The position numbers were made by a program, and so were the translations under genes. 32,000 nucleotides of DNA, taken from the NCBI RefSeq assembly GCF_001598795.1, contig NZ_BCZP01000009.1, positions 257,876 to 289,875 of the forward strand, given 5' to 3'. Positions 1-27,924 of the stretch are shown in pieces; positions within the stretch are counted from its first letter, which is position 1, and each line of letters starts with the position of its first letter. The notes beneath the pieces are model-generated. The model had not been told where the DNA came from. It saw only the letters and a list, made by a program, of their open reading frames with translations, and did no database searches. The DNA is from Delftia acidovorans NBRC 14950 (GTDB taxonomy: Bacteria; Pseudomonadota; Gammaproteobacteria; Burkholderiales; Burkholderiaceae_C).

Positions 1-2182
1 TTTCCAGGCCTTCAAGCTCCTGCTTCAGCAAAAGCGCAGTTTCCTGTGGCTCGAACTGACGCTGCAGCAGCGGGATGGTGAAGACGTAGCTTGCATCGTG
101 CACGCCGTGGGTTTCATCGCGGCGCAGGACGTAGGCCAGTTGCAGGCGCGCCAGGGACCGGCGCAAGGCCTGGGCCTGGCCGGTGGCGCCGTGGGACTGG
201 ACCAGGGCGTCGAGTGCGGTCAGGCTGGTCTGTCCTTGCTGGGCCGTGTGATAGACGGCGATGCGGTCCAGGCGGCAGGCCTGTTCGTCGGTGCTCAAGC
301 GGCCCCATCCCACCAGCGCGTCCTGCACGGGCTGGGATGCCATGGCCTGGCGCAGGTGGCGTTCTTCGATGACGCGTTCGTCGGGCCCCAGGGCTTCCAG
401 GCATTCCTGGCAGAGGATGGCGACCAGGTTGGCGCGCCTGCCGCTGGCCTCTATCAGCCGCTCGGCCAGAGCGTCGTTGGCAAAGCCCAGGCGCAGCCTG
501 CGCAGCGGTTCGGTGGCCAGGGCGTGACATGCCGCTGGCTCCAATCCACCAATGGCCAGGATTTCGCCGAAGTTGCGCAGCGGCGATTGGTAGTCGAGCA
601 GCGCTGCCGCGTACAGATCCCAGAATCCCGCCAGCATGAACCAGCAACGGCCCTCCTCGCTCAGCGCGCGCAAGGCGCTGAGCTGGGGGTAGCCATTGCG
701 GGCTTCGTCGCGGAAGAACAGGTCGGCCTCGTCGATCAGCAGGTACAGCCGCCTGCCCTGCGACTGCTTTTGCAGGTGTTCGATGATGGCCTCCAGCGGT
801 GTTTCCACGGGAAGGCCGAACTGCGTGGCCAGGCGCGGCGTAAGGCGGTGGTCGCGCAGCGAGATGTAGTGGCAGGCGATGGCCGGATGCTCCTGCAGCC
901 GCCGCTGCACGGCCTTGAGCAGGCTGCTTTTGCCGAGCTGGCGTCCTCCCACGACCAGGTAGTTGGCCGGTTCGCGGTTGAGCACGCGGGCCAGCAGGCG
1001 CTCGCGGCCAAAGAAAACGTCCTCGCGCGTCACGCCGCCGCGCGTCTGGTAGGGCGATATGCGCGTGACCTGCAGCTGCGTGGCCAGCAGCCGCAGCAGC
1101 ACCTGGTCCGGAGCGCCGCCCAGCAGCCATTCGGTCTGCCCCGGGCTGTCCAGCAGCACGTGCAGGTTGGCGCGGTCCTGGGCATGGCGCTGCAGCAGCG
1201 GCATGGGCGACTGGGGATGGTGCGAGCTCACGATGAGCACCACATCGCCGCCGGTTTGCAGCAGGCGCAGCTGGCGCACGAGTTCGCCCTCTTCCAGCTC
1301 CGCTGGGGGCGCATAGACCAGGCAACGGCCCAGGGCGATGGGCAGCTCGGGCGGCAGCGTCCACTCGAACATGTCGCCGGGCACGGGCCACTCGCCTTGC
1401 GCCGGTTTGCAGACGGCGGACAGGCGTTCGGCCAGCGCCCGCACGCGGGCGCCTGGGCTTGCGCCGGCAAGGCGCAGGGCCCGCTGCCAGTCCGGCGGGC
1501 GTATGCCCGCAGCGCGCAAGACGGCGGAACGGCGGCCGGTGAGCTGCAGCAGCCGGTCCAGCTGGGGCAGATGCTGGTAGGGCTTGCGGCGCAGGCGCTC
1601 GGGCTTGAGCTGTGCCGGGCCTATCAGCGGATGGCGCACCAGCCACAGCAGGGCCAGGCAGCCAAAGACCAGTGCGCTGGTCCAGATGACGCTGCGCAGC
1701 CATCCAAAGGGTTCATGCTCGGGCTGGCCCGGCGAGGGGCTGCAGTTCAGCGGCAGGTAGCGCGGCGGAGTCGGAGGCAGGCCGCCCTGGCAGCTCCAGT
1801 CCCAGCGTTGCCTGTCCAGTTGCAGCAGGACCTGGGTTCCGGCGAGCACGCCCATCTGGCTGTCGCGCACCACGTCCGCCTGCAGCACGAATGGACTGGG
1901 CGAGCTCATGCGCACGCGTGGTTCGGCAATGTCCGGCGCCACGCTGGCCAGGTCCTGCGGCCAGCTTTCATGCTGGCGCACATAGTCCATCAGGGCCAGG
2001 CGCCACAGGATGATTTCGTTCCAGACCCGGCCCGAGCTTTCCGCGCCCTGCAGGCTGCTGCGGGTGACGGGGTTGTAGCGGGGCAGCAGGATGGCCGTGC
2101 CGATGAACAGCGTGACCAAGGCGAGCAGCGCGGCGCGCCACCAGGATCTGGGCAGTTGCACAAGCCGACCCAGGCCGCTCAT
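1..2182 (-). CDS. Membrane-anchored P-loop NTPase (Arch_ATPase/STAND-like), 3'-truncated by the window edge; layout TM - pilin-like ectodomain - TM - cytoplasmic ATPase
   Basis: Not in the ORF track because it has no stop inside the window. My manual minus-strand translation from ATG (complement of 2180-2182) stays open to base 2 (727 codons) with GC3-rich codons. It reads MSGLGRLVQLPRSWWRAALLALVTLFIGTAILLPRYNPVTRSS ... WSCQGGLPPTPPRYLPLNCS ... FGWLRSVIWTSALVFGCLALLWLV ... FFGRERLLARVLNREPANYLVVGGRQLGKSSLLKAV (Walker A, about 923-949) ... RRLYLLIDEADLFF (Walker B, about 722-748). The start overlaps the upstream stop as ATGA. Confidence 0.75.
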   Translation of the reverse strand, partial: MSGLGRLVQLPRSWWRAALLALVTLFIGTAILLPRYNPVTRSSLQGAESSGRVWNEIILWRLALMDYVRQHESWPQDLASVAPDIAEPRVRMSSPSPFVLQADVVRDSQMGVLAGTQVLLQLDRQRWDWSCQGGLPPTPPRYLPLNCSPSPGQPEHEPFGWLRSVIWTSALVFGCLALLWLVRHPLIGPAQLKPERLRRKPYQHLPQLDRLLQLTGRRSAVLRAAGIRPPDWQRALRLAGASPGARVRALAERLSAVCKPAQGEWPVPGDMFEWTLPPELPIALGRCLVYAPPAELEEGELVRQLRLLQTGGDVVLIVSSHHPQSPMPLLQRHAQDRANLHVLLDSPGQTEWLLGGAPDQVLLRLLATQLQVTRISPYQTRGGVTREDVFFGRERLLARVLNREPANYLVVGGRQLGKSSLLKAVQRRLQEHPAIACHYISLRDHRLTPRLATQFGLPVETPLEAIIEHLQKQSQGRRLYLLIDEADLFFRDEARNGYPQLSALRALSEEGRCWFMLAGFWDLYAAALLDYQSPLRNFGEILAIGGLEPAACHALATEPLRRLRLGFANDALAERLIEASGRRANLVAILCQECLEALGPDERVIEERHLRQAMASQPVQDALVGWGRLSTDEQACRLDRIAVYHTAQQGQTSLTALDALVQSHGATGQAQALRRSLARLQLAYVLRRDETHGVHDASYVFTIPLLQRQFEPQETALLLKQELEGLE

Positions 2183-3429
2183 GCCTGCAGCACCGCCACG
2201 GCGGCTTCGCGGGCAATGTCGCAGCGCCAGTGCAGATGGGCACCCTCACCTGCTCCGCGCACCTGCAGCAGATTGCCCCAGAACAGGCGCCGCAGCACGG
2301 CATCCTGCAGATAGGGGCGTGCACGGCCCAGCGATGCCGCATCCACCAGCCCGCGCAGTTGCTCGCGCGTGGCAGGTTCCTGCGCCAGGGGCAGCAAGGT
2401 CTGCCACAGGCGGGCGCTGGCCACCAGATGGGCGCGCAGCAGGGGCGAGTGCACGGAAGCGACGCCCACGCCCTGCTCCATCAGCCATTGCAGCGCTTCC
2501 TCGAAAAGCGCGGGATGCCCGCCCGTCAGCGCCTGCAATGCCTCGATGACCTCGGCCGGCCAGGCCGTGCCGGGCCAGCGCTGGTGCGCCATCAGGGCCA
2601 GGTCTTCCAGCGTGGGATCGGGCCAGTGGGCCACCTGGCCGATGTTGAGCAGCGACAGGTCACCGCTGCGGTACTTGAGGTCGGCCAGGGCCTCGCTGCC
2701 GCACAGCAGCAGGTGCAGGCGGCCGCTGTGCATTTCGCTGAGGCTGCGCAGAATGCCGGCCAGTGTCTCGCGCAGCTGCGCCGTGCCCTGCTCGAAGCGG
2801 CTGACCAGGCAGAACAGCCGGCCGCCGGCCAGCAGGCGCTTTTCCAGCAGGGCCTCGAATTCGTAGTCCGAGCCCACTTCGCCCAGCCCGCATTGCCGGC
2901 CCAGGGCCGCAAAGTAGTCGGCCGCAGCCGTGCTCACGCTGTAGGGCGGCTGGATGTGCAACACCGCCTCGGCGCCATACTGGGCGCGGGCGCGCAGCAG
3001 CAGTTCCTGGCGAAACGGGGGCTGCCCCCAGTGCGCGGGCGACAGCAGCATGGTGATGGCATAGGGCCGGGCATGGGCCAGCTGGGCGAAAAGCCGGTCC
3101 ATGAAGCCTGCAAAAGGCTGGGCGCCAGCGGCGGCGGCCTGCAGCGGAAACTCCGTGGCAAAGCCAGCGGCGGAGAACAGGCGATTGGTCTCCGCCTCCG
3201 TCAGACGCAGGTACTGGGCGCAGGCGGCCAGCCGGTCGCGCGAGCGCGGATTGGGCAGGGAAACCCCATTCCTCCAGTTGTTGACGGCTTCCCGGCTCAG
3301 CCCGATCTCGGTGGCCACGCCCGAGGCGCTGGCGCGGATGCGGCGCATGTACAGCCCCAGCAAATGGCCGAAATCCTCGTGAACGCCTGGTGCCACGGCA
3401 GCTCCCTGTTCAATGGCGGTGGGCTGCAT
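2179..3429 (-). CDS. XRE-family HTH protein fused to a degenerate (Walker A/B-less) copy of the neighbouring NTPase module
   Basis: 416-aa track ORF with a true ATG at 3427-3429 and GGAG 8 nt upstream. N-terminal HTH: FGHLLGLYMRRIRASASGVATEIGLSREAVNNWRNGVSLP. The remainder aligns by eye with the ATPase core of the downstream gene, but has LLSPAHWGQPPF in place of GGRQLGKSS and LVSRFEQG in place of LIDEADLF. Confidence 0.8.
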   Translation of the reverse strand: MQPTAIEQGAAVAPGVHEDFGHLLGLYMRRIRASASGVATEIGLSREAVNNWRNGVSLPNPRSRDRLAACAQYLRLTEAETNRLFSAAGFATEFPLQAAAAGAQPFAGFMDRLFAQLAHARPYAITMLLSPAHWGQPPFRQELLLRARAQYGAEAVLHIQPPYSVSTAAADYFAALGRQCGLGEVGSDYEFEALLEKRLLAGGRLFCLVSRFEQGTAQLRETLAGILRSLSEMHSGRLHLLLCGSEALADLKYRSGDLSLLNIGQVAHWPDPTLEDLALMAHQRWPGTAWPAEVIEALQALTGGHPALFEEALQWLMEQGVGVASVHSPLLRAHLVASARLWQTLLPLAQEPATREQLRGLVDAASLGRARPYLQDAVLRRLFWGNLLQVRGAGEGAHLHWRCDIAREAAVAVLQA

Positions 3430-3447
3430 CAGCGACGGCTCCGCTCA

Positions 3448-3469
3448 GGAAAACAGCGCCTGCTGGCGC
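3448..3469 (-). terminator. Weak hairpin plus T-tract between the 2TM gene and the HTH gene (possible terminator/attenuator)
   Basis: The minus strand reads GCGCC-AGCA-GGCGC followed by TGTTTTCC. The stem is only 5 bp. It lies 19 nt upstream of the ATG at 3429. Confidence 0.25.
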
Positions 3470-3576
3470 AGATCCATCCTGCCGGGGCCATGGTCCGTAT
3501 CCTCATCCTGTTCACCCTCTCCTGGGATTCAGCTGGTCTTGTGCAATTTGTTTCATTTTGCCGAGCGCGGATTGTC

Positions 3577-4398
3577 TCAGGATGCGGCATCGCCGCCACC
3601 CTGCCCCGCAAACTCCCGTCGCGCGCCGGCCATGCGGTACAGAGGCAGCACCACCGCCAGCACCAATCCCAAAGCCAGCCAGAACCACAGGCCCTTGCCT
3701 CTGAAGGCCAGGGCCGCAATGACGGTGAAGGCCACGGCCTCGCACAGCCCGCGAAAGCCGGCCCGCAGCATGAACAGCCCCACGATGCCCTGCACGGGCG
3801 ACACGCCGCTCTTGCGCAGGCTGGCCATGGTGTCCAGCAGGGCCTGCACGGATTCCTGGGCCTGGCGGTCACGCTCCTGGTCCCGCTCGCGCAGCCGGGT
3901 GATGGCCATGGGCTGGGCCGGATTGGTCAGGGCGGTGCCGTCGGCGCCCTCTTCCTGGCCGGGCTGCGGATAGACCTCGCCATCCGTATCGACCAGCACC
4001 TGGCGCTCCGGGTAACGGGACAGCCAGGCGTGGTGGCTGACCCATTGGCCAGCATCGAAGTGGTAGCGCTCGCTCTCGCCCACCTGGTCGTAGAAGACAT
4101 GCAGCACCGCCGCCTGCAGGCCGTGCTGGAACAGCGTCTCCAGCAATCGCCAGGGCATGCCGGCCGTGGTGCGGGTGTCAAAGCCCAGCTCCAGGTGCTG
4201 GGGATGGCCCAGGGCGCTGGCATTGGCCCAGTCGTCATCCCACAGCGCGGACCGGTCCAGGGCGGGGTCCAGCTCATGGATCCAGCGCTCGGCCTGCTCC
4301 CAGGACTGCCGGGCCAAGTACTGGCAGATCAGTTGCACGCGGCGCAGCTGCAGGGGCGTATCGAAGAAAAGATAGAGGTGATGGACGTTGCTGGACAT
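3577..4398 (-). CDS. Hypothetical protein: soluble N-terminal domain, charged linker, C-terminal two-TM hairpin
   Basis: Same frame as track ORF 3577..4629. I prefer the start at MSSNVHHLYLFFDTP (ATG = complement of 4396-4398) because the upstream extension is R/G/C-rich junk. The C-terminus has hydrophobic spans IVGLFMLRAGFRGLCEAVAFTVIAALAF and LWFWLALGLVLAVVLPLY. I recognise no family. Confidence 0.6.
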   Translation of the reverse strand: MSSNVHHLYLFFDTPLQLRRVQLICQYLARQSWEQAERWIHELDPALDRSALWDDDWANASALGHPQHLELGFDTRTTAGMPWRLLETLFQHGLQAAVLHVFYDQVGESERYHFDAGQWVSHHAWLSRYPERQVLVDTDGEVYPQPGQEEGADGTALTNPAQPMAITRLRERDQERDRQAQESVQALLDTMASLRKSGVSPVQGIVGLFMLRAGFRGLCEAVAFTVIAALAFRGKGLWFWLALGLVLAVVLPLYRMAGARREFAGQGGGDAAS

Positions 4399-4603
4399 GG
4401 CGGGCCTGAGGCGTTTGCAGGAATGCCGCGATTGTTCAATTGCAGCCGCCAGCCGGCCCTCCCAGGCCTGTCCAGCAGGCGGCTGGCAGGCGCTCCCACC
4501 GGTTGACATTCTGTCCACTGCAAGAAGCGGGATGCAGGCGCTGCGGCGGCGCCCTAGACTGCGGCAATTGCCCACAGCGCCCATACCGCCAACCGCGCCC
4601 GCC

Positions 4604-5335
4604 ATGCACAACCTCCGTCTTTTCGACAACGAAGCTTGCGAATCCGCCCCGCCCGGCCACTGGACGCAGATGGAGCACCAGCTCGATGAGCAAGGCTGCG
4701 CGCGCCTGCCCGGCCTGCTGGATGCGCAGCAGTGCCGCGACCTGGCCGCTCTTTACGCAAGGGAGGACGGCTTTCGCTCCCGCATCGTCATGGCACGCCA
4801 CGGTTTCGGGCGCGGCGAGTACCAATATTTCGACTACCCCTTGCCACCGCTGCTGCAGCGCCTGCGCGAGCAGCTGTATCTGCGCCTGGCGCCGGTGGCC
4901 AATCTCTGGAACCAGCGCATGGGGCTGGAGGTGCGCTATCCGGACCGGCTGCAGGACTTCCTGGCGCGCTGCCACGCGCAGGGCCAGTTGCGGCCCACGC
5001 CGCTCATCCTTCAATACGGTGCGGGCGACTACAACTGCCTGCACCAGGATGTCTATGGAGAGCATGTGTTTCCGCTGCAGGTGGTGCTGCTGCTGTCGCG
5101 GCCCGCGCGGGACTTCACGGGTGGCGAGTTCGTCATCACCCAGGCCGATGGCGACCGGCAGCGGGCCGATGTGATGGCACTGGACCAGGGCGATGCGCTG
5201 GTCCTGGCCGTGCGCCACCGGCCCGTGCCCGGGCGGCGCACCGGCTACCGCCGCGTGGCCATGCGCCATGGGGTCAGCCGCATCCACAGCGGCCATCGCC
5301 ATACCGTGGGGCTGATCTTTCATGACGCACTTTGA
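4604..5335 (+). CDS. 2OG-Fe(II) oxygenase, COG3826 / Oxygenase-NA-like (predicted nucleic-acid base oxygenase)
   Basis: Frame of track ORF 4388..5335; start taken at MHNLRLFDNE (ATG 4604). An alternative ATG at 4532 would add an R/P-rich extension. Motifs: GEYQYFDYPLP, RPTPLILQYGAGDYNCLHQDVYGEHVFPLQVVLLLS (HxD), FTGGEFV, RHGVSRIHSGHRHTVGLIFHDA. Confidence 0.8.
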   Translation: MHNLRLFDNEACESAPPGHWTQMEHQLDEQGCARLPGLLDAQQCRDLAALYAREDGFRSRIVMARHGFGRGEYQYFDYPLPPLLQRLREQLYLRLAPVANLWNQRMGLEVRYPDRLQDFLARCHAQGQLRPTPLILQYGAGDYNCLHQDVYGEHVFPLQVVLLLSRPARDFTGGEFVITQADGDRQRADVMALDQGDALVLAVRHRPVPGRRTGYRRVAMRHGVSRIHSGHRHTVGLIFHDAL

Positions 5336-5338
5336 TGG

Positions 5339-5998
5339 ATGGCCGGTATGAGCACGCTGGATCTTTTCGCCGATGAACATCCCACCGGGGCCGAATCCAT
5401 AGGTCCGCAATCCGTGGTGCTGCGCGGCCATGCCCTGCCCCATGCCGTGCAGTTGCTGGAGGCGGTCGAAGGCATTGCGGCGCGGGCGCCGCTGCGCCAT
5501 CTGGTTACGCCGGGCGGCTTCACCATGTCGGTGGCCATGACCAACTGCGGCGCGCTGGGCTGGACCAGCGACAGGCGCGGCTACCGCTACAGCGCCATCG
5601 ACCCACTCAGCGGCCAGCCCTGGCCGGCCATGCCGGCCGTGTTTGTCCGGCTGGCGGGCGAGGCGGCCGCTGCGGCGGGGTTCGATGGCTTTGTGCCCGA
5701 TGCCTGCCTCATCAACCAGTACCTGCCCGGCACCCGGCTTTCCCTGCACCAGGACCGCGACGAACACGACCTGGGCGCGCCCATTGTCTCGGTGTCCCTG
5801 GGCATGCCCGCCACGTTTCTGTTTGGAGGACTGGCGCGGACAGACAGCACGGCCAGGGTGCCGCTGCAGCATGGCGACGTGGTGGTCTGGGGCGGTGTGG
5901 ATCGGCTGCGCCACCACGGCGTGTTGCCGCTCAAGGACCAGCCTCACCCGCTGCTGGGCGGGCGGCGCATCAATCTCACTTTTCGCAAGGCGGGCTGA
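5339..5998 (+). CDS. alkB: Alpha-ketoglutarate-dependent DNA/RNA dioxygenase AlkB
   Basis: Collinear with E. coli AlkB as I recall it: LDLFAD, VTPGGFTMSVAMTNCGALGWTSDRRGYRYS, PWPAMP, DACLINQYLPGTRLSLHQDRDE (HxD), APIVSVSLG, HGDVVVWGG, RLRHHG, INLTFRKAG. The start may instead be the in-frame ATG at 5348 (MSTLDLFAD). Confidence 0.93.
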   Translation: MAGMSTLDLFADEHPTGAESIGPQSVVLRGHALPHAVQLLEAVEGIAARAPLRHLVTPGGFTMSVAMTNCGALGWTSDRRGYRYSAIDPLSGQPWPAMPAVFVRLAGEAAAAAGFDGFVPDACLINQYLPGTRLSLHQDRDEHDLGAPIVSVSLGMPATFLFGGLARTDSTARVPLQHGDVVVWGGVDRLRHHGVLPLKDQPHPLLGGRRINLTFRKAG

Positions 5999-6700
5999 AT
6001 GGTTGGACGGTCTGAAATGGATAGGCTCAACGGCCAGGATCGCTTCGCCCGCCTGGATTGGGCGCGGATTGCCGCTGAGCTCGATGCCGAAGGCCATGCC
6101 CGGCTGCCGCAGCTGCTGACTGCGGATGAAAGCCGCGCCTTGGCCCGCGAGGCGGCAGCCGCGTCTGGCCTGCCGCCCTGCGTGCAGGCATGGCGCCCGG
6201 TGCTGTACGGGCATCTGCTGGCCCTGGCCAACCGCTGGCGCGAACACATGGGCATGATGCCTGGGTTGCCAGGCTGCTTCGAGGATTTCATGCGTCCGGG
6301 CCGGCAAGCAGGCCAAACGCAGCCACAGCCACATCTGCTGCGCGTGCCGCAAGCGGGTCATGCCCCGCTGCGTTCATACAGCGAAGGTGCGGCGGTGTTT
6401 CCGCTGCAGCTGGTGCTGCTGCTGTCCCGGCCGGGCCAGGATTTCGAGGGCGGCGAATTCGTGATGACCGAGCAGCGCCCGCGCATGCAATCGCGCCCCA
6501 TGGTGCTGCCGCTGGGCCTGGGGGATGCGGCCATCATCGCCACGGGGCCGCGCCCGGTGCGCGGTGCGGCGGGCTTTTACCGCGTGCATCTGCGGCATGC
6601 CATCAGCCGCGTTCACCGTGGCGAGTGGCTGGGTCTGGAGCTGCTTTTGCACGACGTGCCCCAGGCGCCAAAGGCTCTGCAAACGGACCGCTGGCTATAA
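5999..6700 (+). CDS. Degenerate paralogue of the 4604..5335 oxygenase (HxD iron ligands replaced; candidate pseudoenzyme)
   Basis: ATG 5999 directly abuts the alkB stop (TGA 5996-5998). It shares LDAEGHARLPQLL, VFPLQLVLLLSRPGQDFEGGEFVMTEQRPRMQSR and YRVHLRHAISRVHRG...LLLHD with the upstream paralogue. At the LHQD position it reads LRSY, and it lacks the GEYQYFDYPLP segment. Confidence 0.7.
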   Translation: MVGRSEMDRLNGQDRFARLDWARIAAELDAEGHARLPQLLTADESRALAREAAAASGLPPCVQAWRPVLYGHLLALANRWREHMGMMPGLPGCFEDFMRPGRQAGQTQPQPHLLRVPQAGHAPLRSYSEGAAVFPLQLVLLLSRPGQDFEGGEFVMTEQRPRMQSRPMVLPLGLGDAAIIATGPRPVRGAAGFYRVHLRHAISRVHRGEWLGLELLLHDVPQAPKALQTDRWL

Positions 6701-7152: not shown

Positions 7153-9309
7153 ATGTTCGAAATGCATTCTTCCTTTTCCAGGGTTTCCAGCGCTCGCGCT
7201 GCCCAGTCCCTTTCCGTGCGGCTGAGCCCGCTGGCCCTGGCCTGCGCCTTCATCTGCCTGCCGGCGCAGGCTCAAACACAAACGCCCACGCCAACGCCCC
7301 CATCAACCGCCCTGCCCGAGGTCCAGGTCACCGGCCAGGCCGAACGCATCGGCCAGCAACTGGCCCAGCCTGCGCGCTCTGCCAGCCATACCGGCGTCTC
7401 CAACCAGGAAGTGCCGGCCAGCGTGGACGGCGTCTCTGCCGAGCAGATGCAGGAGCGCGGCGACTACGCCCTGGTGGACGCCGTCACGCGCACCGTGGGC
7501 CTGACCTCCAGCAGCACGCCGGGCAACGGCGGCCTGGCCTTCAGCAGCCGCGGCTTTGCGGGTGTCAATTCCGTGGGCGTGGCCGAAGACGGCATGGTGC
7601 TGGGCGTGGCCGCCGGCACCACGGCGTATCCGGGTGACAGCTGGGGCTACGAGCGCATCGAAGTGCTGCGCGGCCCGGCCTCGCTGATGTATGGCAGCGG
7701 CACCATGGGCGCCACGGTCAACGCCTTCCGCAAGCAGCCCAGCCGCACCAGCTCGGCCGAGGTGCTGGTGGGCGCGGGCACGGACGACACGCTGCGCCTG
7801 GGCCTGGGCGTGACCGGCGCCCTGGGCGCCTATGCCAGCTACCGTATCGACAGCTACACCGCCCGCAGCGCAGGCGAGCGCGATCTGGACCAGTCGCGCA
7901 ACGGCAAGTTCATGAGCACGCTGCGCTTGGAGCCCACGAGCGACCTGCAGATCGACCTGATCGCCGACCGCAGCGTGCAAAAGCCCAGCCGCTACTGGGG
8001 CACGCCGGGCCTGAGCGGCAAGGTGGTGGAGTCGCTGCGCGACCGCAATTACAACGCCGAAGACAGCGTGCTGCGCTATGCCGACGAGCGCCTGCGCGCC
8101 AAGGTGCAATGGAAGGCCAATGACTGGCTGACGGTGCGCAACGAGCTGTACCACGTGAAGTCCGACCGCCACTGGCGCAACATCGAGGCCTACGCGCTCA
8201 ACCCCGCCACCTGGACCGTGGGCCGCTCCGACTACCTGGAAATCCTGCACGACCTGGAGCAGACCGGCAACCGCCTGGGCCTGAACGTGGACCGGGGCTC
8301 GCACAAGATCGCCATGGGCTGGGAGGCCGCGCGCATCAACCTGCGGCTGTCCAACAACTCGCCCTATGGTGGCTCGTCCACGGTCTCGGCCTGGGATCCC
8401 GTGCATGGCAGCTGGGCCAGCCCCGATCTCACCGCCGCCAAGACAGAAACCGGCGTGACCCAGCATGCCCTGTACCTGGAAGATGCCTGGCGCATCAGCA
8501 ACCGCTGGCTGGCCATGGCCGGCCTGCGCCGCGATGTCTACGACTTTGCCAGCCACTCGCTGGTGGGCGGCACGGATTTCAACAAGACGCTGGCCGCCAC
8601 CTCCTGGCGCCTGGGCCTGACCTATGAGCTGGCCCGCAACACCCATGTCTATGGGCAGATCAGCTCGGGACACGATCCCGTCAACAGCCTGGTGTCGCTG
8701 AACCTGGCCAACACGGCTTACAAGCTGAGCAAGGGCCGCCAGGCCGAGATCGGCATCAAGCAGCAGGTGGCTGGCGGGCGCGGCGAATGGACGCTGGCCG
8801 TGTTCGACATCAAGAAGGACAACATCATCACGCGCGACCCGGACCGCCCGGCCATCTCCATTCAGGGCGGCAGCCAGTCCTCGCGCGGGGCGGAAGCCAC
8901 CGCCACCTTCCAGGCCACGCCCGCCCTGCGCCTGGAGGGCAACCTGTCCTATGTGGACGCCCAGTTCGACAAGCTCATCGAGGCCGGCGGCAACCGCGCA
9001 GGCAACCGTCCGCAGAACGTGGCCAAGACCACGGCCAACCTTTGGGGCCACTACCGCGTGGGCGCCTGGCAGGCCTCGCTGGGCCTGCGCTACGTGGGTG
9101 ACCGCTTTGGCAACAACGCCAATACCGTGAACCTGCCCGCCTACACCGTGGCCGACGCCGCGCTGAGCTGGCAGGTGGACCCGCGCACCACCCTGAGCCT
9201 GATCGGCCGCAACCTGGCCGACAGGGTCTATGTGGGATCGAGCTACGGCAGCCAGTTCCTGGTCGGGCAAGGCCGCCGCTTCGAGATCGCGGCGCATATC
9301 CGGTTCTGA
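7153..9309 (+). CDS. TonB-dependent outer-membrane receptor (riboswitch context suggests a corrinoid/cobalt-chelate substrate)
   Basis: 718 aa. Signal peptide ends ...LALACAFICLPAQA. TonB-box-like ALPEVQVTG. Plug motifs IEVLRGPASLMYGSG. Beta-barrel repeats and the terminal RRFEIAAHIRF with C-terminal Phe. An alternative start is ATG 7162. Confidence 0.9.
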   Translation: MFEMHSSFSRVSSARAAQSLSVRLSPLALACAFICLPAQAQTQTPTPTPPSTALPEVQVTGQAERIGQQLAQPARSASHTGVSNQEVPASVDGVSAEQMQERGDYALVDAVTRTVGLTSSSTPGNGGLAFSSRGFAGVNSVGVAEDGMVLGVAAGTTAYPGDSWGYERIEVLRGPASLMYGSGTMGATVNAFRKQPSRTSSAEVLVGAGTDDTLRLGLGVTGALGAYASYRIDSYTARSAGERDLDQSRNGKFMSTLRLEPTSDLQIDLIADRSVQKPSRYWGTPGLSGKVVESLRDRNYNAEDSVLRYADERLRAKVQWKANDWLTVRNELYHVKSDRHWRNIEAYALNPATWTVGRSDYLEILHDLEQTGNRLGLNVDRGSHKIAMGWEAARINLRLSNNSPYGGSSTVSAWDPVHGSWASPDLTAAKTETGVTQHALYLEDAWRISNRWLAMAGLRRDVYDFASHSLVGGTDFNKTLAATSWRLGLTYELARNTHVYGQISSGHDPVNSLVSLNLANTAYKLSKGRQAEIGIKQQVAGGRGEWTLAVFDIKKDNIITRDPDRPAISIQGGSQSSRGAEATATFQATPALRLEGNLSYVDAQFDKLIEAGGNRAGNRPQNVAKTTANLWGHYRVGAWQASLGLRYVGDRFGNNANTVNLPAYTVADAALSWQVDPRTTLSLIGRNLADRVYVGSSYGSQFLVGQGRRFEIAAHIRF

Positions 9310-10352
9310 TGGCCATGGCGCGCTCCAAAAGCCTCCATGGCCTGTGCGCTGGCGCCCTGGCGGCCACCCTGCTGCTGGCCGGCTGCTCGCGCAGCGATTC
9401 CGGCACCACCAGTGAACTGCCGGCACCGGCTGCCGCACCGCAGGCGGCCGTGACCGTCAATGTCTGCGGCAGCCCCGTGACCTACGCCAACGCACCGCTG
9501 CGCGCCGTGACCCATGACGTGAACATCACCGAGATGTTTCTCTTTCTGGGCCTGGGCGACCGGCTGGTGGGCTACAGCGGTATCACGCAGGCCAAGCAGA
9601 TCGACCCGGCCTTCCAGGCCCAGCTGGCCCGCGTGCCGCGGCTGGCGGAGCGCGAGATGAACCTGGAGGCCATTCTGGGCGCCTCGGCTGACTTCGTCTT
9701 CGGCGGCTGGAGCTACGGTTTTCGCCAGGGCCAGGTCACGCCCGAGGTGCTGCAGCGCCACGGCATTGCCTCATATGTATTGTCCGAATCGTGCATCCGC
9801 GTGGGGCCGCGCAGCCAGGTGGCGCTGGAAGACGGCCTGACCGACCTGCGCAACCTGGGCCGCATCTTCCGCATCGACGCCCATGCCGAGCAACTGGCGC
9901 AGGGGCTGGAGCGCGAACTCAAGGACCTGCGCGAGCGCATGCAGGGCGTGCGGCAGCGGCCTTCGGTCTTCGTCTACGACAGCGGCCAGGACATCCCCGT
10001 GACCGTGGGCCGCTACGGCATGCCGCAGGCCATGATCGAGGAAGCGGGCGGGCGCAACATCTTCGACGACATTCCCAGCAACTGGCCTGCAGGCAACTGG
10101 GAGGACGTGGTGCAGCGCAACCCGCAGTGGATCGTCATCATCGACTACGGCCAGCCCCATGCGCAGGGCAAGATCGACTTCCTGCTGGCCAAGCCCGAGC
10201 TGGCGGGCGTCGATGCCATCCGCGAAAAGCGGTTCTTCGTCATGACCTATGCCGAGGCCACGCCCGGCCCGCGCAATATTGCGCGGACCCGCGCGCTGGC
10301 GCAGGCCCTGCACCCCGACCGCATGCCGGCGCCCAGCCATGCGGTCAACTGA
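9309..10352 (+). CDS. Periplasmic substrate-binding lipoprotein of a BtuF/FecB-type ABC importer
   Basis: The ATG overlaps the receptor stop (TGATG). Lipobox LLLAGCS. Typical class III binding-protein length and composition. Followed by FecCD permease and ATPase genes. Confidence 0.85.
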   Translation: MAMARSKSLHGLCAGALAATLLLAGCSRSDSGTTSELPAPAAAPQAAVTVNVCGSPVTYANAPLRAVTHDVNITEMFLFLGLGDRLVGYSGITQAKQIDPAFQAQLARVPRLAEREMNLEAILGASADFVFGGWSYGFRQGQVTPEVLQRHGIASYVLSESCIRVGPRSQVALEDGLTDLRNLGRIFRIDAHAEQLAQGLERELKDLRERMQGVRQRPSVFVYDSGQDIPVTVGRYGMPQAMIEEAGGRNIFDDIPSNWPAGNWEDVVQRNPQWIVIIDYGQPHAQGKIDFLLAKPELAGVDAIREKRFFVMTYAEATPGPRNIARTRALAQALHPDRMPAPSHAVN

Positions 10353-11424
10353 CTCCCGCTGGCCCAGGCGTCCTGGCGCCGCCCGCCTCTGGTGCCTGCT
10401 GCTGTTCGCGGCCCTGTTGCTGGTGATGACGCTGGCCATTACCTGGGGGCCAGTGGACATGCCGGCAGGCACGGTCTGGCGCATTGCCCGGAGCCGGTTG
10501 CTGCAGGCCTTGGGCATGCAGCCGCCGCCGCTGGAGGGCATCACGCCGCAGCACCAGCAGATCGTCTGGCTGATCCGCATGCCGCGCGTGCTGCTGGCGG
10601 CCCTGGTGGGCGCGGGGCTTGCCGTGGTGGGCACCATCATGCAGGCCATGGTGCGCAATCCGCTGGCCGATCCCTATCTGCTGGGCGTGTCCTCGGGTGC
10701 GTCGGTGGGCGCCGTGGCCGTGCTGGCCTTCGGTGCGCTGGCCTCGGCCGGCATGTACGCCCTCACGGCCGGGGCCTTTGTGGGGGCGCTGGCGGCCACC
10801 GTCGCCGTCTACCTGCTGGCGCGCTCCCAGGGCCGCATCCATGCCACGCGGCTGATCCTGGGTGGTGTGGCCATCGGCTATGTGCTGGCGGGCGTGACCA
10901 GCCTGATCACCCTGTCATCGGGCCAGCGTGACCTGGCCAATGCCCTGCTGACCTGGACGCTGGGCAGCCTGGCCGGCACGCAGTGGGAGGAACTGGGCAT
11001 TCCCGCCGCCGTGCTGGCTGCAGGAATGCTCTGGCTGGGGCTGCAGACGCGCCCGCTCAACGCCCTGCTGGCCGGTGACGAGGCCGCCGCCACGCTGGGC
11101 GTGGACACGGCACGGCTGCGGCGCGCACTGTTCCTGGCGGTGTCGCTGCTGACGGGCACCATGGTGGCGGTCAGTGGCGCCATCGGCTTTGTGGGGCTAA
11201 TCGTGCCGCACGCCGCGCGCATGCTGGTGGGCACGGACCACCGGCGCGTGCTGCCTGTGGCCGCCCTGGCCGGCGCCCTGCTGCTGGTGCTGGTGGATCT
11301 TGTCGCGCGCACGGCCTTTGCGCCCATGGAACTGCCCGTGGGCGTGATCACCTCGCTGATCGGCGGACCCTTCTTCGTCTGGATGCTGGTGCGCCAGCCG
11401 GTGCAGGGAGGGCGCGGCCCATGA
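10339..11424 (+). CDS. FecCD/BtuC-family ABC importer permease
   Basis: Frame of track ORF 10249..11424. Start taken at ATG 10339 (MRSTDSRWPRRPG..., 14-nt overlap with the binding-protein gene). Multiple TM spans plus RMPRVLLAALVGAGLAVVGTIMQ, NPLADPYLLGVSSGAS and GFVGLIVPHAARMLVG motifs. Confidence 0.87.
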   Translation: MRSTDSRWPRRPGAARLWCLLLFAALLLVMTLAITWGPVDMPAGTVWRIARSRLLQALGMQPPPLEGITPQHQQIVWLIRMPRVLLAALVGAGLAVVGTIMQAMVRNPLADPYLLGVSSGASVGAVAVLAFGALASAGMYALTAGAFVGALAATVAVYLLARSQGRIHATRLILGGVAIGYVLAGVTSLITLSSGQRDLANALLTWTLGSLAGTQWEELGIPAAVLAAGMLWLGLQTRPLNALLAGDEAAATLGVDTARLRRALFLAVSLLTGTMVAVSGAIGFVGLIVPHAARMLVGTDHRRVLPVAALAGALLLVLVDLVARTAFAPMELPVGVITSLIGGPFFVWMLVRQPVQGGRGP

Positions 11425-12209
11425 AGCTGCAAGCCCAGGACCTGTGCTGGAGTGCCGATGCCCGGCGTGTCGACGCCCGGCGCATCGTGGACCAGGCCAG
11501 CCTTGCCCTGCACAGCGGCGAATGCGTGGGGCTCATCGGCCCCAACGGCAGCGGCAAATCCACCCTGCTGCGCATGCTCTACCGCGTGTTGCGGCCCGAC
11601 GCAGGCTGCGTGCTGCTGGACCAGCGCGACATCCGGGACATGACGGCGCGCGAGTTCGCGGCCCAGGTCTCGGTCCTGGCGCAGGAGGCGCCTCAGAGCT
11701 TTGACTTCACCGTGCGCGAGGCGGTGATGATGGGCCGCATCCCCCACCAGTCCCCCTGGGCGGGCGACAGCGCCGAGGACCTCGCCTGCATGCGGCAGGC
11801 GCTGGCCCAGGTGAATGCCTTGGCGCTGGAGGAGCGGCGTTTCTCCAGCCTGTCCGGCGGCGAGAAGCAACGCGTGCTCGTGGCCCGCGCGCTGGCCCAG
11901 CAGCCACGGCTGATGCTGCTGGACGAGCCGACCAACCACCTGGACATACGCCATCAGCTGGAGTTGATGTCACTGGTCCGGCGCCTGCAGATCAGCAGCA
12001 TCGTCGCCCTGCACGACCTCAACATCGCCGCCCACTACTGCGACCGTCTCTATCTCATGGAACAAGGCCGCATCGTTGCCCATGGCACACCGGCCCAGGT
12101 ACTGACCCCGGCCACCATCGGCCAGGTCTACGGCGTGGCTGCCGAGGTGGACATCCATGCCGCCACCGGCCGGCTGCGCATCAGCTTCATTCCCGATGAA
12201 CTCCTCTGA
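11421..12209 (+). CDS. ABC importer ATP-binding protein (BtuD/FecE-like)
   Basis: ATGA overlap with the permease gene. Walker A GPNGSGKST, signature LSGGEKQRV, Walker B LMLLDEPTNHLD, H-loop ALHDLN. Confidence 0.92.
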   Translation: MKLQAQDLCWSADARRVDARRIVDQASLALHSGECVGLIGPNGSGKSTLLRMLYRVLRPDAGCVLLDQRDIRDMTAREFAAQVSVLAQEAPQSFDFTVREAVMMGRIPHQSPWAGDSAEDLACMRQALAQVNALALEERRFSSLSGGEKQRVLVARALAQQPRLMLLDEPTNHLDIRHQLELMSLVRRLQISSIVALHDLNIAAHYCDRLYLMEQGRIVAHGTPAQVLTPATIGQVYGVAAEVDIHAATGRLRISFIPDELL

Positions 12210-22039: not shown

Positions 22040-23023
22040 CTAGCCTCTCCTGTCCTTGAGGCGCGTCATGGAGCGGCGCGCCGCTGACAGGCTGCCGCGC
22101 CGGCCCAGCGAAAGCCCCGCGCCGGCATCCGGCAAGGCACCGCCAGCGGCCAATCGCTGCTGTGCCTCCAGCAGGCTGCGCAGGTCCGCCGCACGCTCCT
22201 GCGCCAGGGCGGCCGCATTCTGGGCGGTCTGCAGCTGGGAGTGCAGGCTCAGCTGCTCCTCCTCACTCTTTTCATAGCGGCCTTGCAGCTCTGCGAGGCG
22301 GGTCGCTGCCTTGCGCTCCTGCTCGGTGGCTGTCTTGCGCGCAGCCGCCAGTTCCTGGCGTGCACGGTCCACTTCGTTGAGCATGTGGCGCTCATTGCCC
22401 GCGTATTGCTCGGCCATGCGCTGGCGTTCCAGCGCGGCAGACTGCATTTCCTCGCCATGCTTTTGCTGCAGCGCCTCGCGCTGGCGGGCGGCTTCGGCCA
22501 GCGCATCGCGCATTTCCTCCAGGCGCTCGTCGCGGTCCTGCAGCTGCTGCTGCATTTCATCCAGCCGGCGTGAAAGATCCTGTGACTGCGCCTGGGCCAC
22601 TTGCAGGGCCTGGTCCATGGCCTCTTTCTGCGCCTGCATGGACGCCTCGCGCCGCGCCATTTGCTCTTGCTGCTCCTGCAGCTCGGCCTGCGTGGCCTGC
22701 GCCGCTTCCTCGCGCGATTGCAGCGCGGCGCGGGCGGCCTCCATGGCGGCTTCCTGGGCGGCGTCCCACAGTTGCTGCGCCAGGCGCTGAACGGGATCGG
22801 GCACGGACGAGGGCAGCAACTCGCCCTGCCCTGCCGCCACGCCCAGGCGCTGGCCCAGGGTGGCAAACCAGGTCTCCAGCATCGGGCTGACGGTATTTGG
22901 CGAGCCTCGGCCGATTTGCTGGCGCACGCGCTCAATGGTCGGCCGCAGGCCCTGGGCGATCAAGGCGTCTGCCGCGGCCCAGACATCGGCTTCCTGCACG
23001 CCGCGGGTGGATGTTTTCTGCAT
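22040..23023 (-). CDS. KfrA_N-like DNA-binding domain plus long Q/E/A-rich coiled coil
   Basis: Start at MQKTSTRGVQEADVWAAADALIAQGLRPTIERVRQQIGRGSPNTVSPMLETWF (ATG = complement of 23021-23023). This matches the KfrA N-terminal pattern as I recall it. About 230 aa of heptad-like Q/E/A/R sequence follow. Confidence 0.72.
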   Translation of the reverse strand: MQKTSTRGVQEADVWAAADALIAQGLRPTIERVRQQIGRGSPNTVSPMLETWFATLGQRLGVAAGQGELLPSSVPDPVQRLAQQLWDAAQEAAMEAARAALQSREEAAQATQAELQEQQEQMARREASMQAQKEAMDQALQVAQAQSQDLSRRLDEMQQQLQDRDERLEEMRDALAEAARQREALQQKHGEEMQSAALERQRMAEQYAGNERHMLNEVDRARQELAAARKTATEQERKAATRLAELQGRYEKSEEEQLSLHSQLQTAQNAAALAQERAADLRSLLEAQQRLAAGGALPDAGAGLSLGRRGSLSAARRSMTRLKDRRG

Positions 23024-23049
23024 ATCGTGAACTATTTTCCAGATTACCA

Positions 23050-23070
23050 ACGATAAGTGATTGTTATCGT
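23050..23070. promoter_or_regulatory. Inverted repeat ACGATAA-N7-TTATCGT in the very AT-rich KfrA-like/integrase divergent gap
   Basis: Perfect 7-bp arms lying 27-47 nt upstream of the KfrA-like start. The gap (23024-23125) is the most AT-rich stretch of the window. Confidence 0.3.
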
Positions 23071-23125
23071 GATTTATTTTAATATTGCGTAATACATCAT
23101 ATGTGCCATGTATTAAATATTACAT

Positions 23126-24436
23126 ATGAAATTTTCATACAGTATGGATACGCACATTACACGGCTTTGCCCAGGCAAAAGGCCGCTGCAACCTCTGGAA
23201 AGCCTGGAAACTGAACTTTGCATGGCCTGCATGGCCGCAGGCTCCGCGGCGGGCAGCCATGCTGCGCCGGGCGACAATCCACGGATGCGCAACGGCCCCT
23301 TTTCGCTGATTCCCCAAGACCAGCCTCTGGAAGACACAAAGCAAGGCAGCACCCTGCCCTCTGCAGGGCTGGAGCCTGCCGCCCAGCAGGCCGTGCGCGA
23401 GTTGCTGCGCGAGGGCGAATCCACCAACACCAGAAACAGCTACCAGAGTGCGATGCGCTACTGGGCCGCTTGGCATGCGCTGCGCTTTGAGCGGCAGATG
23501 CAGCTGCCGCTGGATGTGCCGTGCGTGCTGCAATTCATCATTGACCATGCCCTGCGGCAGACCGGCGCGGGCCTGGCCAGTGAAATGCCGGCGCACATGG
23601 ACCGCGCCCTGGTCGAGGCCGGGTACAAGGCCCGCGAAGGCCCCCTGTCGCACAACACGCTGGTGCACCGCATGGCGGTGCTGTCCAAGGCCCATCAGGT
23701 GCACGGTTTGGCCAACCCCTGCCAGGACGGCGCGGTGCGCGAGCTGATGTCGCGCACGCGCAAGGCCTATGCGCGGCGCGGCGAGCAGCCCGCCAAAAAG
23801 GATGCGCTGACGCGCGACTTGCTGGAGCAATTGCTGCAGACCTGCGATGACAGCCTGCGCGGCCGCCGTGACCGCGCCCTGCTGCTGTTCGCCTGGTCCA
23901 GCGGCGGGCGCCGCCGCTCGGAGGTGGCCGGGGCGGACATGCGCCACCTGCGCGCCGTGGGGCCGCAGGAATTCATCTACACGCTGGCGCACTCCAAGAC
24001 CAACCAGTCCGGGCGGGATGCGCCCGAGAACCACAAGCCCGTGACCGGGCGCGCGGCCCAGGCGCTGGCCGATTGGCTGCGTGCCGCCGCCATACAGGAA
24101 GGGCCGATCTTCCGGCGCATCCGCAAAGGCGGCCATGTGGGCGAGCCCCTGTCGCCAGCGGCCGTGCGCGACATCGTGAAGCAGCGCTGCGCGCTGGCAG
24201 GCGTGGAGGGGGATTTCTCGGCGCATTCCCTGCGCTCGGGCTTTGTGACCGAGGCCGGGCGCCAGAACGTGCCCTTGCCCGACACCATGGCGCTGACGGG
24301 GCACAGCAGCGTCAATACGGTGCTGGGCTATTTCCGTGCGGATTCCGCGTTGAGCAACCGAGCGGCCCGGCTGCTCGACGCCGGCGACGACGATGCGGCC
24401 GCCGCCGCGCAAGGCAGCGGCCGGCCGCAGTCCTGA
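23126..24436 (+). CDS. Tyrosine site-specific recombinase / integrase
   Basis: SAM-like N-domain: NTRNSYQSAMRYWAAWHAL. Catalytic residues in order: SSGGRRRSEV (Arg), LAHSKTNQ (Lys), SAHSLRSGF (His-x-x-Arg), LTGHSSVNTVLGYFR (His ... Tyr). The start is uncertain, with in-frame ATGs at 23126, 23144 and 23285. Confidence 0.88.
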   Translation: MKFSYSMDTHITRLCPGKRPLQPLESLETELCMACMAAGSAAGSHAAPGDNPRMRNGPFSLIPQDQPLEDTKQGSTLPSAGLEPAAQQAVRELLREGESTNTRNSYQSAMRYWAAWHALRFERQMQLPLDVPCVLQFIIDHALRQTGAGLASEMPAHMDRALVEAGYKAREGPLSHNTLVHRMAVLSKAHQVHGLANPCQDGAVRELMSRTRKAYARRGEQPAKKDALTRDLLEQLLQTCDDSLRGRRDRALLLFAWSSGGRRRSEVAGADMRHLRAVGPQEFIYTLAHSKTNQSGRDAPENHKPVTGRAAQALADWLRAAAIQEGPIFRRIRKGGHVGEPLSPAAVRDIVKQRCALAGVEGDFSAHSLRSGFVTEAGRQNVPLPDTMALTGHSSVNTVLGYFRADSALSNRAARLLDAGDDDAAAAAQGSGRPQS

Positions 24437-25534: not shown

Positions 25535-25650
25535 CAAAAACTCCTCTGTGGGTCTGCTTTTTTCATTCTGCTGAGCAAAAAACCGTCTGGGAATGAAAAA
25601 GCCGGCTCCTTGGCAAAAATAGTTGCTCCATTTTCATGGCCTGCAAAAAG

Positions 25651-27917: not shown

Positions 27918-27924
27918 AGGCGTC

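Follow-up and report, generated by a model that had tools for sequence, protein, structure and literature searches.

A conserved two-gene module of Delftia acidovorans pairs a predicted membrane-spanning STAND NTPase with a P-loop-less, putatively DNA-binding partner

The window analysed in this work is a stretch of 32,000 nucleotides from Delftia acidovorans NBRC 14950 (contig NZ_BCZP01000009.1, positions 257,876 to 289,875 of the forward strand), and it begins with two overlapping genes on the minus strand, here called A and B, which are the subject of this study. Gene A is an open reading frame (ORF) ending in TGA (2179..3429, minus strand) for a protein of 416 amino acids, in which an XRE-type helix-turn-helix (HTH) domain is followed by an inactive nucleotide-binding oligomerization domain (NOD) of the STAND type, composed of a nucleotide-binding domain (NBD), a helical domain and a winged helix, as judged from the ORF, its homologues, the AlphaFold2 (AF2) model and Foldseek. 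Gene B (1..2182, minus strand) encodes a transmembrane STAND nucleoside triphosphatase (NTPase), as judged from its open frame, Pfam and its homologues. The frame of B is open from 2182 to the edge of the window, which holds 727 of its codons, and the complete gene was recovered from the same genome (L001:11248-13446) and has 732 codons, the window being short of the last 5. The sequence ATGA at 2182..2179 contains both the start codon ATG of B and the stop codon TGA of A, as read from the sequence and also seen in the synteny over loci, so that the 4-nt overlap described in an earlier note, made by a model from the sequence alone, has been confirmed. The same note had remarked that gene B was missing from its ORF track, which is consistent with an ORF tool that omits ORFs running off the window. 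Both genes were also found at 3.30 Mb of GCA_000741825.1, their best protein matches are 99% identical and belong to D. acidovorans, and 265 homologues of A and 291 of B are conserved over the full length of the proteins; judged by sequence, the two frames can be taken as genuine genes. The long ORFs of the plus strand at 98..2314 (738 amino acids), opposite B, and at 2230..4506 (758 amino acids), opposite A and the gene upstream of it (gene C, see below), are read as antisense shadows, which are common in high-GC DNA (here 68-71% GC) and may mislead gene calling based on ORF length.

The pair is conserved well beyond Delftia. A scan of one genome per species gave 80 loci, from Delftia, Acidovorax, Simplicispira, Hydrogenophaga, Undibacterium, Massilia, the Pseudomonas nitroreducens/otitidis group, Tahibacter and other Lysobacterales, and in 78 of them B comes immediately after A, the remaining two being contigs of 1.5-1.8 kb that end early. 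Co-occurrence outside this genome, on which the earlier note had made its proposal depend, was in fact found. The start of the B frame overlaps or abuts the stop of A in 75 of 77 loci, and from this gene overlap the two genes are predicted to be translationally coupled. Furthermore, the identity to the Delftia pair drops in parallel for A and B (96/91, 75/62, 68/56 and 56/48%), and the mean pairwise identity among beta- and gamma-proteobacteria is 75% for the HTH domain, 74% for the NOD of A and 76% for the NTPase of B.

Protein A carries at its N-terminus a predicted XRE/Cro-C1-type HTH domain (residues 20-88; 3166..3372, minus strand), assigned from Pfam, a PDB profile search and the helices of the AF2 model. 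Pfam HTH_31 scored 23.2 bits, under its cut-off of 27, and HTH_3 matched with E = 0.041, while the XRE-type repressor 2KPJ was a weak match (E = 0.045) and the sole one of the full-length profile of A in the PDB. In PHROGs, where the HTH was the only part of the pair to match, the hit was phrog_638 (E = 0.003), and nothing meaningful was obtained in NCBIfam; homologues of A are called 'XRE-family' by JGI. The AF2 model, which has a mean pLDDT of 85.9, shows five helices in residues 20-87. The claim of the earlier note that the upstream product has an XRE-type HTH domain agrees with these matches.

The remaining 310 residues of A are folded in the AF2 model as a beta1-alpha-beta2-alpha-beta3-alpha-beta4-alpha-beta5 core followed by a helical domain and a winged helix, and Foldseek matched the model to ORC2 (E = 7.5e-8), archaeal ORC/Cdc6, plant NRC-type NLRs, Avs3/Avs4 and MalT (8BOB). 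According to the AF2 model, Foldseek and the hhalign comparison with the core of B, A thus has the fold of STAND NTPases, and its NBD-like core (residues 105-270; 2620..3117, minus strand), delimited by the order of the AF2 elements and by that comparison, is devoid of the catalytic motifs. At the position of the P-loop, A has SPAHWGQPPFR (residues 130-140; 3010..3042, minus strand), without the GK[ST] of the Walker A motif GxxxxGK[ST], and at the position of Walker B, aligned with LYLLIDEAD of B, it has LFCLVSRFE (residues 205-213; 2791..2817, minus strand), without the acidic pair, as had been claimed from the sequence alone. In 24 beta- and gamma-proteobacterial orthologues, H133 to P138 and R140 of the first replacement and F206 and L208 to E213 of the second are invariant, and because of this invariance the dead site appears to be a conserved alternative site and not the product of random erosion. 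The GxP motif, a feature of the STAND helical domain (PMC6468293), is kept in A as TGGHPAL (residues 302-308; 2506..2526, minus strand), with G303, G304, H305 and P306 invariant in the orthologue alignment and SGGHPxL across the wider family. In Pfam, AAA_35 (PF14516) reached 23 bits against a threshold of 27 over residues 258-364 only, and few relatives have a precomputed match to it. From its sequence, A would be a soluble protein whose NOD cannot bind nucleotide in the usual way.

In the case of B, two hydrophobic segments (residues 15-33 and 164-182, Kyte-Doolittle values of 2.0-2.1) coincide with helices of the AF2 model and define a first transmembrane helix, TM1 (residues 12-33; 2084..2149, minus strand; hydropathy 2.04, AF2 helix 12-32), preceded by basic residues, and a second one, TM2 (residues 160-184; 1631..1705, minus strand; hydropathy 2.13, AF2 helix 160-183). 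Between them lies a putative type-IV-pilin-like domain (residues 34-159; 1706..2083, minus strand), proposed from the AF2 model, Pfam matches of the orthologues and a PDB profile search. In the AF2 model this head is built from a long helix and four strands (with block means of the pLDDT of about 75-90), and its Cys131 and Cys147 are invariant among orthologues. Two orthologues with about 50% identity to B are above the Pfam Pilin cut-off of 22 (P0234, 27.3 bits; P0238, 26.2 bits), 7 of 19 orthologues match Pilin at E < 0.1, with a best E of 4.8e-7, and the only PDB matches of the head-domain profile were the PilA structures 1HPW and 1QVE (E = 0.08), over the last strands and the disulfide loop. 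The head is also the fastest-evolving part of B, with 36% mean pairwise identity. Prepilin leaders have a cleavage site between G(-1) and F(+1) and a Glu+5, and in the N-terminus of B, MSGLGRLVQLPRSWWRAALLALVTLFIGTAILLPRYNP, no such GFTLIE-type site was found. As the prepilin cleavage motif is missing and a second transmembrane helix follows the head, the head should stay anchored in the inner membrane facing the periplasm. B is therefore modelled as an inner-membrane protein with the N-terminus and the C-terminal 550 residues predicted to be cytoplasmic and the disulfide-bearing head periplasmic, a domain that was absent from the earlier note. One Delftia locus, L120, has an in-frame deletion of 945 nt in B (at L120:2332, compared with L119:2332-3276; about residues 39-353), which takes out the head, TM2 and the cytoplasmic domain and joins TM1 to the NTPase core; this short B may be either a natural short form or an assembly artefact.

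After TM2 comes a cytoplasmic helical and alpha/beta domain (residues 185-370; 1073..1630, minus strand) that is folded in the AF2 model and had no match in Pfam; the domain is common to the WD40-type partners described below, the alignment with them running from TM2 onwards. It is followed by a segment with the motif TRISPYQTRGG (block of residues 371-392; 1007..1072, minus strand) that is predicted to be disordered (pLDDT below 50) and is among the most conserved stretches of B, with 78% mean pairwise identity and T373 to G382 invariant. The segment is also present in the distant WD40-type partners and may be a docking or regulatory peptide.

The active NBD and helical domain of B (residues 393-600; 383..1006, minus strand), assigned from Pfam, Foldseek and its 76% identity, contain a Walker A motif, GGRQLGKSS (residues 412-420; 923..949, minus strand), and a Walker B motif, LLIDEAD (residues 481-487; 722..742, minus strand), read in the sequence and the orthologue alignment. 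Both motifs, together with FFGRE (residues 390-394), are invariant in 26 orthologues, in particular G412, G413, R414, Q415, G417, K418 and S420 of Walker A and D484, E485, A486 and D487 of Walker B, so that B has the hhGRExE and Walker A and B motifs of STAND NTPases. The description in the earlier note of a live, membrane-anchored downstream NTPase is thus well borne out. On the other hand, B lacks the GxP motif of STAND proteins, the aligned position reading SGRRANL with no proline. In Pfam, AAA_22 scored 33.9 bits and nSTAND1 (PF20703) 29.0 bits against 27.1 over residues 386-589, a narrow margin, and many orthologues carry only AAA_22 in precomputed Pfam; the PDB search with the full-length B profile gave no match. 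The AF2 model of B (pLDDT of 77.5) shows an NBD, a helical domain and a winged helix, the last in the C-terminal region (residues 601-727; 2..382, minus strand) with helices, short strands and 56% identity. This is the architecture of a STAND NOD, in which an AAA+ NBD is followed by a helical domain and a winged helix (PMC6468293), and Foldseek matched the model to ORC/Cdc6, PABY2304, NRC2, RPP1, Avs4 and CED-4.

We have also compared the cores of the two proteins with each other. BLASTP of A against B was not significant (E = 0.65), whereas hhalign gave E = 0.0026 over 132 columns with the orthologue alignments and, with diverse alignments of 134 A-core and 29 B-core sequences, a probability of 76% and E = 2.3e-5 over 183 columns, setting R140 of A opposite the Walker A lysine K418 of B. 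Moreover, the AF2 models of A and B matched the same ORC/Cdc6, plant NLR, Avs and MalT structures, an outcome of the Foldseek comparison that the earlier note had proposed. Because hhalign is significant while BLASTP is not, the two cores are distant homologues within the STAND/AAA+ fold and not recent duplicates. The colinear alignment that had been drawn by eye is reproduced by hhalign for the Walker B block, the GRLHLLLCG/GRCWFMLAG block of the sensor-1 strand and the GGHPAL/GRRANL block, whereas its first block and the exact register of the second are outside or at the edge of the aligned region. The description of A as a paralogue, or dead copy, of B goes too far, A being only a distant relative and a member of a separate P-loop-less family. 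The two families appear to be tied together by a metagenomic fusion of 892 residues (L092:9191-11869, Ga0316201_10000401), which consists of an XRE HTH domain, an A-like NOD in which both Walker motifs are intact (A, GERRSGKTS; B, LMDEIE) and the A-type motif SGCHPALL is present, and the cytoplasmic domain, SPYQ linker and NTPase core of B; it comes after an ordinary HTH plus dead-NOD gene (L092:7992-9188).

When the profile of A was scored against 1.8 billion representative proteins, 620 clusters were obtained at E <= 1e-3 and 179 at E <= 1e-30. The Walker A GK[ST] was seen in none of the representatives of this family that were inspected, P0318 and P0332 keeping the Walker B acidic pair, and the A core would therefore form a separate, large, old and uniformly P-loop-less family. 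Among the N-terminal domains of the top 150 representatives, TIR is found in 70 and HTH in 34, the others including Metallophos (calcineurin-like phosphoesterase) and TIR plus caspase. The neighbour of these A relatives, most of which are metagenomic, is usually a homologue of the B core, with 38-42% identity over about 550 residues from the transmembrane helix on. The N-termini of the B-core proteins vary too, being pilin-like, WD40, weakly CARDB-like or absent, with a transmembrane helix before the conserved cytoplasmic part. In the WD40-type partners, an N-terminal hydrophobic segment and a WD40 propeller replace the pilin-like head before that helix, and the propeller should be extracytoplasmic because the NOD needs cytoplasmic ATP. 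None of this TIR and WD40 context was in the earlier note. When the TIR/WD40 relatives were compared with PADLOC, only their TIR, WD40 and Metallophos parts matched. The pair is kept in 15 of the 20 distant loci that have enough downstream sequence. Of the exceptions, two are solo (L095, L117), one is truncated (L094), one is interrupted by a transposase (L113) and one is fused to an ABC-type ATPase (L118). The metagenomic loci L094:7992-9784 and L095:5592-6752 hold an HTH plus dead-NOD gene near hemC without a B partner, and in L094 a truncated protein of 195 residues with an HTH and a P-loop remnant follows that gene.

Upstream of A, gene C (3577..4398, minus strand) encodes a protein of 273 amino acids with two C-terminal transmembrane helices, as deduced from hydropathy and synteny. 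It is found upstream of A only in Comamonadaceae and some Pseudomonas loci; Undibacterium, Massilia, Tahibacter and many Pseudomonas loci lack it. Its family comprises 58 clusters and has no Pfam match. Gene C was considered as a core component and rejected, as its family is narrow, without a Pfam match and absent from many lineages; since C is restricted to certain lineages, the conserved unit is therefore A plus B. In Acidovorax, an additional membrane protein of 155 residues is encoded between C and A, and Undibacterium has neither this protein nor C. The C-A-B cluster is present in Acidovorax sp. GW101-3H11 (L040, NZ_LUKZ01000009.1, about 1,212-1,216 kb), which we take to be an organism of the Fitness Browser, with random barcode transposon-site sequencing (RB-TnSeq) data, so that mutant phenotypes may already exist. 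The flanks of the pair differ between lineages and are housekeeping genes such as metH, gyrA, the glutathione peroxidase gene gpx, dctA and hemC. The intergenic region between C and A (147 bp; 3430..3576, minus strand) has an AT-richer stretch and a weak hairpin at 3456-3469. In positions 1-4900 of the window, the promoter scan detected no sigma-70 consensus and terminator-like hairpins were not more frequent than in shuffled sequence. We also searched for operators upstream of A in the 80 loci by means of exact palindromes and shared 8-mers and found none kept between genera; the palindrome TTGAC-N5-GTCAA, found in 8 loci, is in the example inspected, from Massilia (L046), part of a long GC-rich terminator-like hairpin.

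Several observations concern mobile elements around the pair. In L001, just beyond window position 1, B is followed by a gene for 128 amino acids and a TraI_2-type relaxase gene, and then by a LysR fragment and a SRAP gene (L001:13650-16687). In L119 (4485-8217) and L120, an inovirus-like element starts about 70 bp past the stop of B, with genes for a rolling-circle Rep-like protein (HYHVVVW, YLMKYATKD), a possible single-stranded-DNA-binding protein and a proline-rich repeat protein. The relaxase in L001 and the inovirus-like prophage in L119 and L120 suggest that, in Delftia, mobile elements use the site past B as a hot spot of insertion. The only two IMG/VR matches (L119 and L120) are Delftia provirus calls that start exactly at gene C and have prophage genes only after B, and both left boundaries look like boundary overcalls; the possibility that the pair is phage-borne was rejected, since the prophage genes start only past B. 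The HTH-form pair had no tblastn match in plasmid or phage collections and a tRNA scan for an integration site gave none. Finally, A had no match in PADLOC-DB 2.0 and B only a faint one, to PDC-S01 (E = 0.0011, 15.9 bits); there was no system-level match, as the earlier note had expected of PADLOC.

In STAND proteins, binding of the inducer converts a closed ADP form into an open ATP form, which then builds head-to-tail multimers in which the effectors are clustered (PMC6468293). In the module described here these elements are distributed over two chains, with the sensor and the live NOD on B and the output and the dead NOD on A. We propose, with a probability of about 0.5, that A and B together form an NLR-like STAND switch which is split into two subunits, spans the membrane and has a transcriptional output. 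According to this proposal, the pilin-like head of B would read a cue from the periplasm or envelope, which may be pilin subunits or something that arrives via the type IV pilus route, and the signal would pass through TM2 and the cytoplasmic alpha/beta domain to open the NOD of B for the exchange of ADP for ATP. The ATP-bound B would then assemble head-to-tail with the dead NOD of A, recruiting or releasing A through NOD-NOD contacts, and the HTH domains of A, clustered or else tethered to or released from the membrane, would change their occupancy of DNA and switch the target promoters; candidates for the regulon are the operon itself and the upstream membrane-protein genes where these are present. 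In the sister clades the same engine would bring together TIR, phosphoesterase or caspase domains, TIR being activated by proximity, and the HTH clade gives the impression of an immune-type architecture that has been domesticated for regulation. Defence and non-defence clades of STAND proteins are in fact interspersed in phylogeny (PMC13581612). We consider the HTH clade to be regulatory rather than conflict-type because of its slow evolution, its housekeeping flanks, its lack of plasmid and phage copies and the lack of PADLOC or PHROGs matches of its cores (the HTH domain and the faint PDC-S01 match aside), and a domesticated regulatory switch, at those same even odds, is favoured over an immune role, its main rival.

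Some points weigh against this proposal. The pilin-like assignment of the head, which comes from the orthologues, a weak PDB match and the secondary structure of the AF2 model, is a good though tentative one, and the B protein of the window itself gave no Pfam Pilin match. DNA binding by A is a prediction, HTH_31 being below the Pfam cut-off, and no operator or promoter motif common to genera was found upstream of A or C. That information flows from B to A is a supposition based on where the sensor and output domains are located. Finally, the solo and decayed A relatives (L095 and L117; L094 and L113) show that a dead-NOD protein can persist without B.

The main rival explanation, that the pair is still an anti-phage or abortive-infection module, is also the other functional reading offered by the earlier note, and of the two the transcription switch is better supported. 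B would in this case detect an invader at the envelope, e.g. a pilus-dependent or filamentous phage, and A would induce a toxic or protective gene, such as that of membrane protein C, or bind the DNA of the invader. The predominance of TIR in the A-core family, with some phosphoesterase or TIR plus caspase members, and the WD40-sensor partners correspond to a predicted conflict-system architecture (PMC7159879, PMC8195603), but the conserved core of the module has no toxic effector, and C, which could take this role, is missing from Undibacterium, Massilia, Tahibacter and many Pseudomonas loci. The periplasmic domain evolves fastest (36% identity), which speaks for this reading, whereas A and the NTPase of B evolve slowly and the flanks are housekeeping genes (metH, gyrA, gpx, hemC). 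A probable insertion hot spot for mobile elements lies past B in Delftia (L001, L119, L120), but the pair has no plasmid or phage copies, and the IMG/VR matches look like overcalls of provirus boundaries that start at gene C. Besides the faint match of B to PDC-S01 (E = 0.0011), which would speak for defence, neither core matches PADLOC. Overall, we consider an immune role possible but rather doubtful for the Delftia pair.

It is unlikely that information flows in reverse, with A as the sensor, its dead NOD and HTH domain forming a nucleic-acid receptor, and B as an ATP-driven executor or anchor in the membrane. Kaur et al. have proposed that inactive STAND domains retain an ancestral nucleic-acid binding and act as sensors (PMC8195603), and the invariant AHWGQPP and SRFEQG of the dead site of A suggest a conserved new site for a ligand or partner. 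However, the enzymatic modules (TIR, phosphoesterase, caspase) are attached to the A core, the classic effector position, and the WD40 and pilin-like modules to the B core, the classic sensor position, while B has no effector domain recognisable by Pfam. Equally improbable in our view is that B acts as a membrane antagonist or chaperone of an autonomous transcription factor A, without a mixed NOD oligomer, in the way that MalK and MalY act on MalT. B is indeed membrane-anchored and A soluble, solo A-like genes exist (L095, L117) and MalT is under inhibitory partners (PMC6468293), but what B carries is not an unrelated inhibitor domain but an entire STAND NOD with the fold of A, the L092 fusion has both NODs in one chain, and the same pairing serves TIR outputs that need clustering. 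That A and B are mere neighbours with unrelated functions, to which the lack of a significant BLASTP match between them might point, is hardly credible, as it is contradicted by synteny, adjacency, order and overlap being kept over beta- and gamma-proteobacteria and the TIR/WD40 relatives, and by the existence of a fusion.

Returning to the split switch with transcriptional output, we would tentatively extend it to a broader proposal, less secure but with some chance of being right, namely that there is an undescribed prokaryotic class of transmembrane NLR-like receptors made of two subunits, with the Delftia pair as its regulatory branch. One subunit would have an extracytoplasmic sensor (pilin-like, WD40 or other), a transmembrane helix and an active cytoplasmic NOD, and the other would be a soluble dead-NOD adaptor with a TIR, phosphoesterase, caspase or HTH output. 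The pilin-headed clade might then sense the type IV pilus or pilin pool or what enters along it, e.g. filamentous or pilus-specific phages. If true, this would be the logic of a Toll-like receptor built on a STAND engine; as far as we have found, sensing outside the cytoplasm has not been proposed for any STAND receptor before. In all domains of life, STAND/NLR proteins act as switches at the centre of immunity and regulation, and they are regarded as cytoplasmic receptors made of one chain. A conserved version with two chains would widen both the places where STAND switches can sense, since its ATP-binding sensor subunit crosses the membrane, and the uses of dead ATPase subunits, since its P-loop-less subunit bears the output. 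The HTH clade is tractable, with two genes, an RNA sequencing readout and cultivable hosts that include the RB-TnSeq strain, while its TIR/WD40 sister clade may be an immune system that present catalogues do not list. The pilin-like head, in turn, points to a connection, so far unexplored, of pilus biology with gene regulation. In work by Kilmury and Burrows (2016), PilS, an inner-membrane regulator, is said to carry out intramembrane sensing of the pilin inventory; PilS is a histidine kinase without a pilin fold, whereas TM1 and the head of B resemble a membrane-retained pilin, and that B senses pilins at all is a hypothesis.

In the remainder of the window, divergently from gene C, an AlkB-like 2-oxoglutarate-Fe(II) oxygenase gene (5339..5998) is located between two PF09859 'Oxygenase-NA' genes (4388-6700), and the arrangement is the same in the Delftia loci L001-L004. 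An uptake cluster of the iron/haem/corrinoid type adjoins the locus at 7153-12978, with genes for a TonB-dependent receptor, a periplasmic binding protein, a FecCD permease, an ABC ATPase and a CbiX-like protein. Further on, a gene for a KfrA_N-domain protein (22040..23050, minus strand) and a tyrosine integrase gene (23126..24436, plus strand) indicate a further mobile element (22040-24436) at a distance of about 20 kb from the pair, and several large ORFs at 25563-31858 have no Pfam match.

With respect to known systems, our literature searches found no description of the pair or of its family, membrane topology or pilin-like sensor, and no named defence or signalling system containing both families was found, in agreement with the earlier note. 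Its proposal of a candidate undescribed module holds in this sense, while the novelty is reduced by the precedents of iSTAND, iSTAND2 and nSTAND2 (PMC7159879, PMC8195603). Among published designs, the two-gene nSTAND2 system (Kaur, Iyer, Burroughs, Aravind 2021, eLife, PMC8195603, Fig. 6C) comes closest; it also has adjacent active and inactive STAND genes, the inactive one with a variable output, and a mixed hetero-multimer was predicted for it (PMC8195603). The likeness is one of design and not of family membership, as B scores with nSTAND1 and AAA_22 and neither A nor B matched nSTAND2 in the Pfam scan. Furthermore, the nSTAND2 outputs are GT4 or HEPN, instead of the HTH, TIR, phosphoesterase and caspase found here, and the nSTAND2 systems are described as mobile and cytoplasmic, whereas the active subunit B crosses the membrane and has its sensor outside the cytoplasm, and the HTH clade is found on chromosomes. 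BREX BrxB and the MoxR-vWA ternary systems provide further cases of inactive STAND partners (PMC7159879, PMC12839542). The iSTAND and iSTAND2 proteins of the latter (PMC7159879, PMC8195603, PMC12839542) combine, as here, an inactive STAND bearing an N-terminal TIR, caspase or similar domain with an active AAA+ partner. Unlike them, A has a full helical domain and winged helix and evolves slowly, its partner is a STAND NTPase, and no MoxR or vWA gene was seen by A in the Pfam-annotated loci L001-L003, L084-L087 and L117 or among the neighbour clusters inspected from the 80 loci; these differences concern context and domain description, and by sequence the A core could still belong to the published iSTAND family.

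MalT, the AfsR/SARP-type regulators and GutR resemble the pair in using a STAND NOD as an ATP-dependent switch for a DNA-binding domain. In these regulators one soluble chain combines an active NOD with a TPR-type sensor in the cytoplasm and a DNA-binding domain of the LuxR or SARP type, whereas in the pair the sensor and active NOD are separated from the HTH domain and dead NOD, and sensing would be extracytoplasmic. Avs, bNACHT and eukaryotic NLRs share with the pair the logic of effector, NOD and sensor, with TIR and WD40 in its relatives and Avs3/4 and plant NLRs among the structural matches. The pair differs from them in being split over two genes, with the sensor N-terminal to the NOD and membrane-spanning, and, from Avs and bNACHT, in that neither core is in the PADLOC models, the faint PDC-S01 match of B aside. 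Finally, ORC/Cdc6, the best structural matches of A and B, offer an example of mixed ATP-binding and degenerate AAA+ subunits of the same clade, in a different domain context and with no replication role implied for the pair. Taken together, the concept of a split or inactive STAND has precedents in iSTAND, iSTAND2, the nSTAND2 active/inactive pair (PMC7159879, PMC8195603) and MalT, and the pair, a real, conserved and uncharacterised two-gene module, differs from them in the families, the membrane-spanning sensor subunit, the pilin-like head and the set of HTH and TIR outputs.

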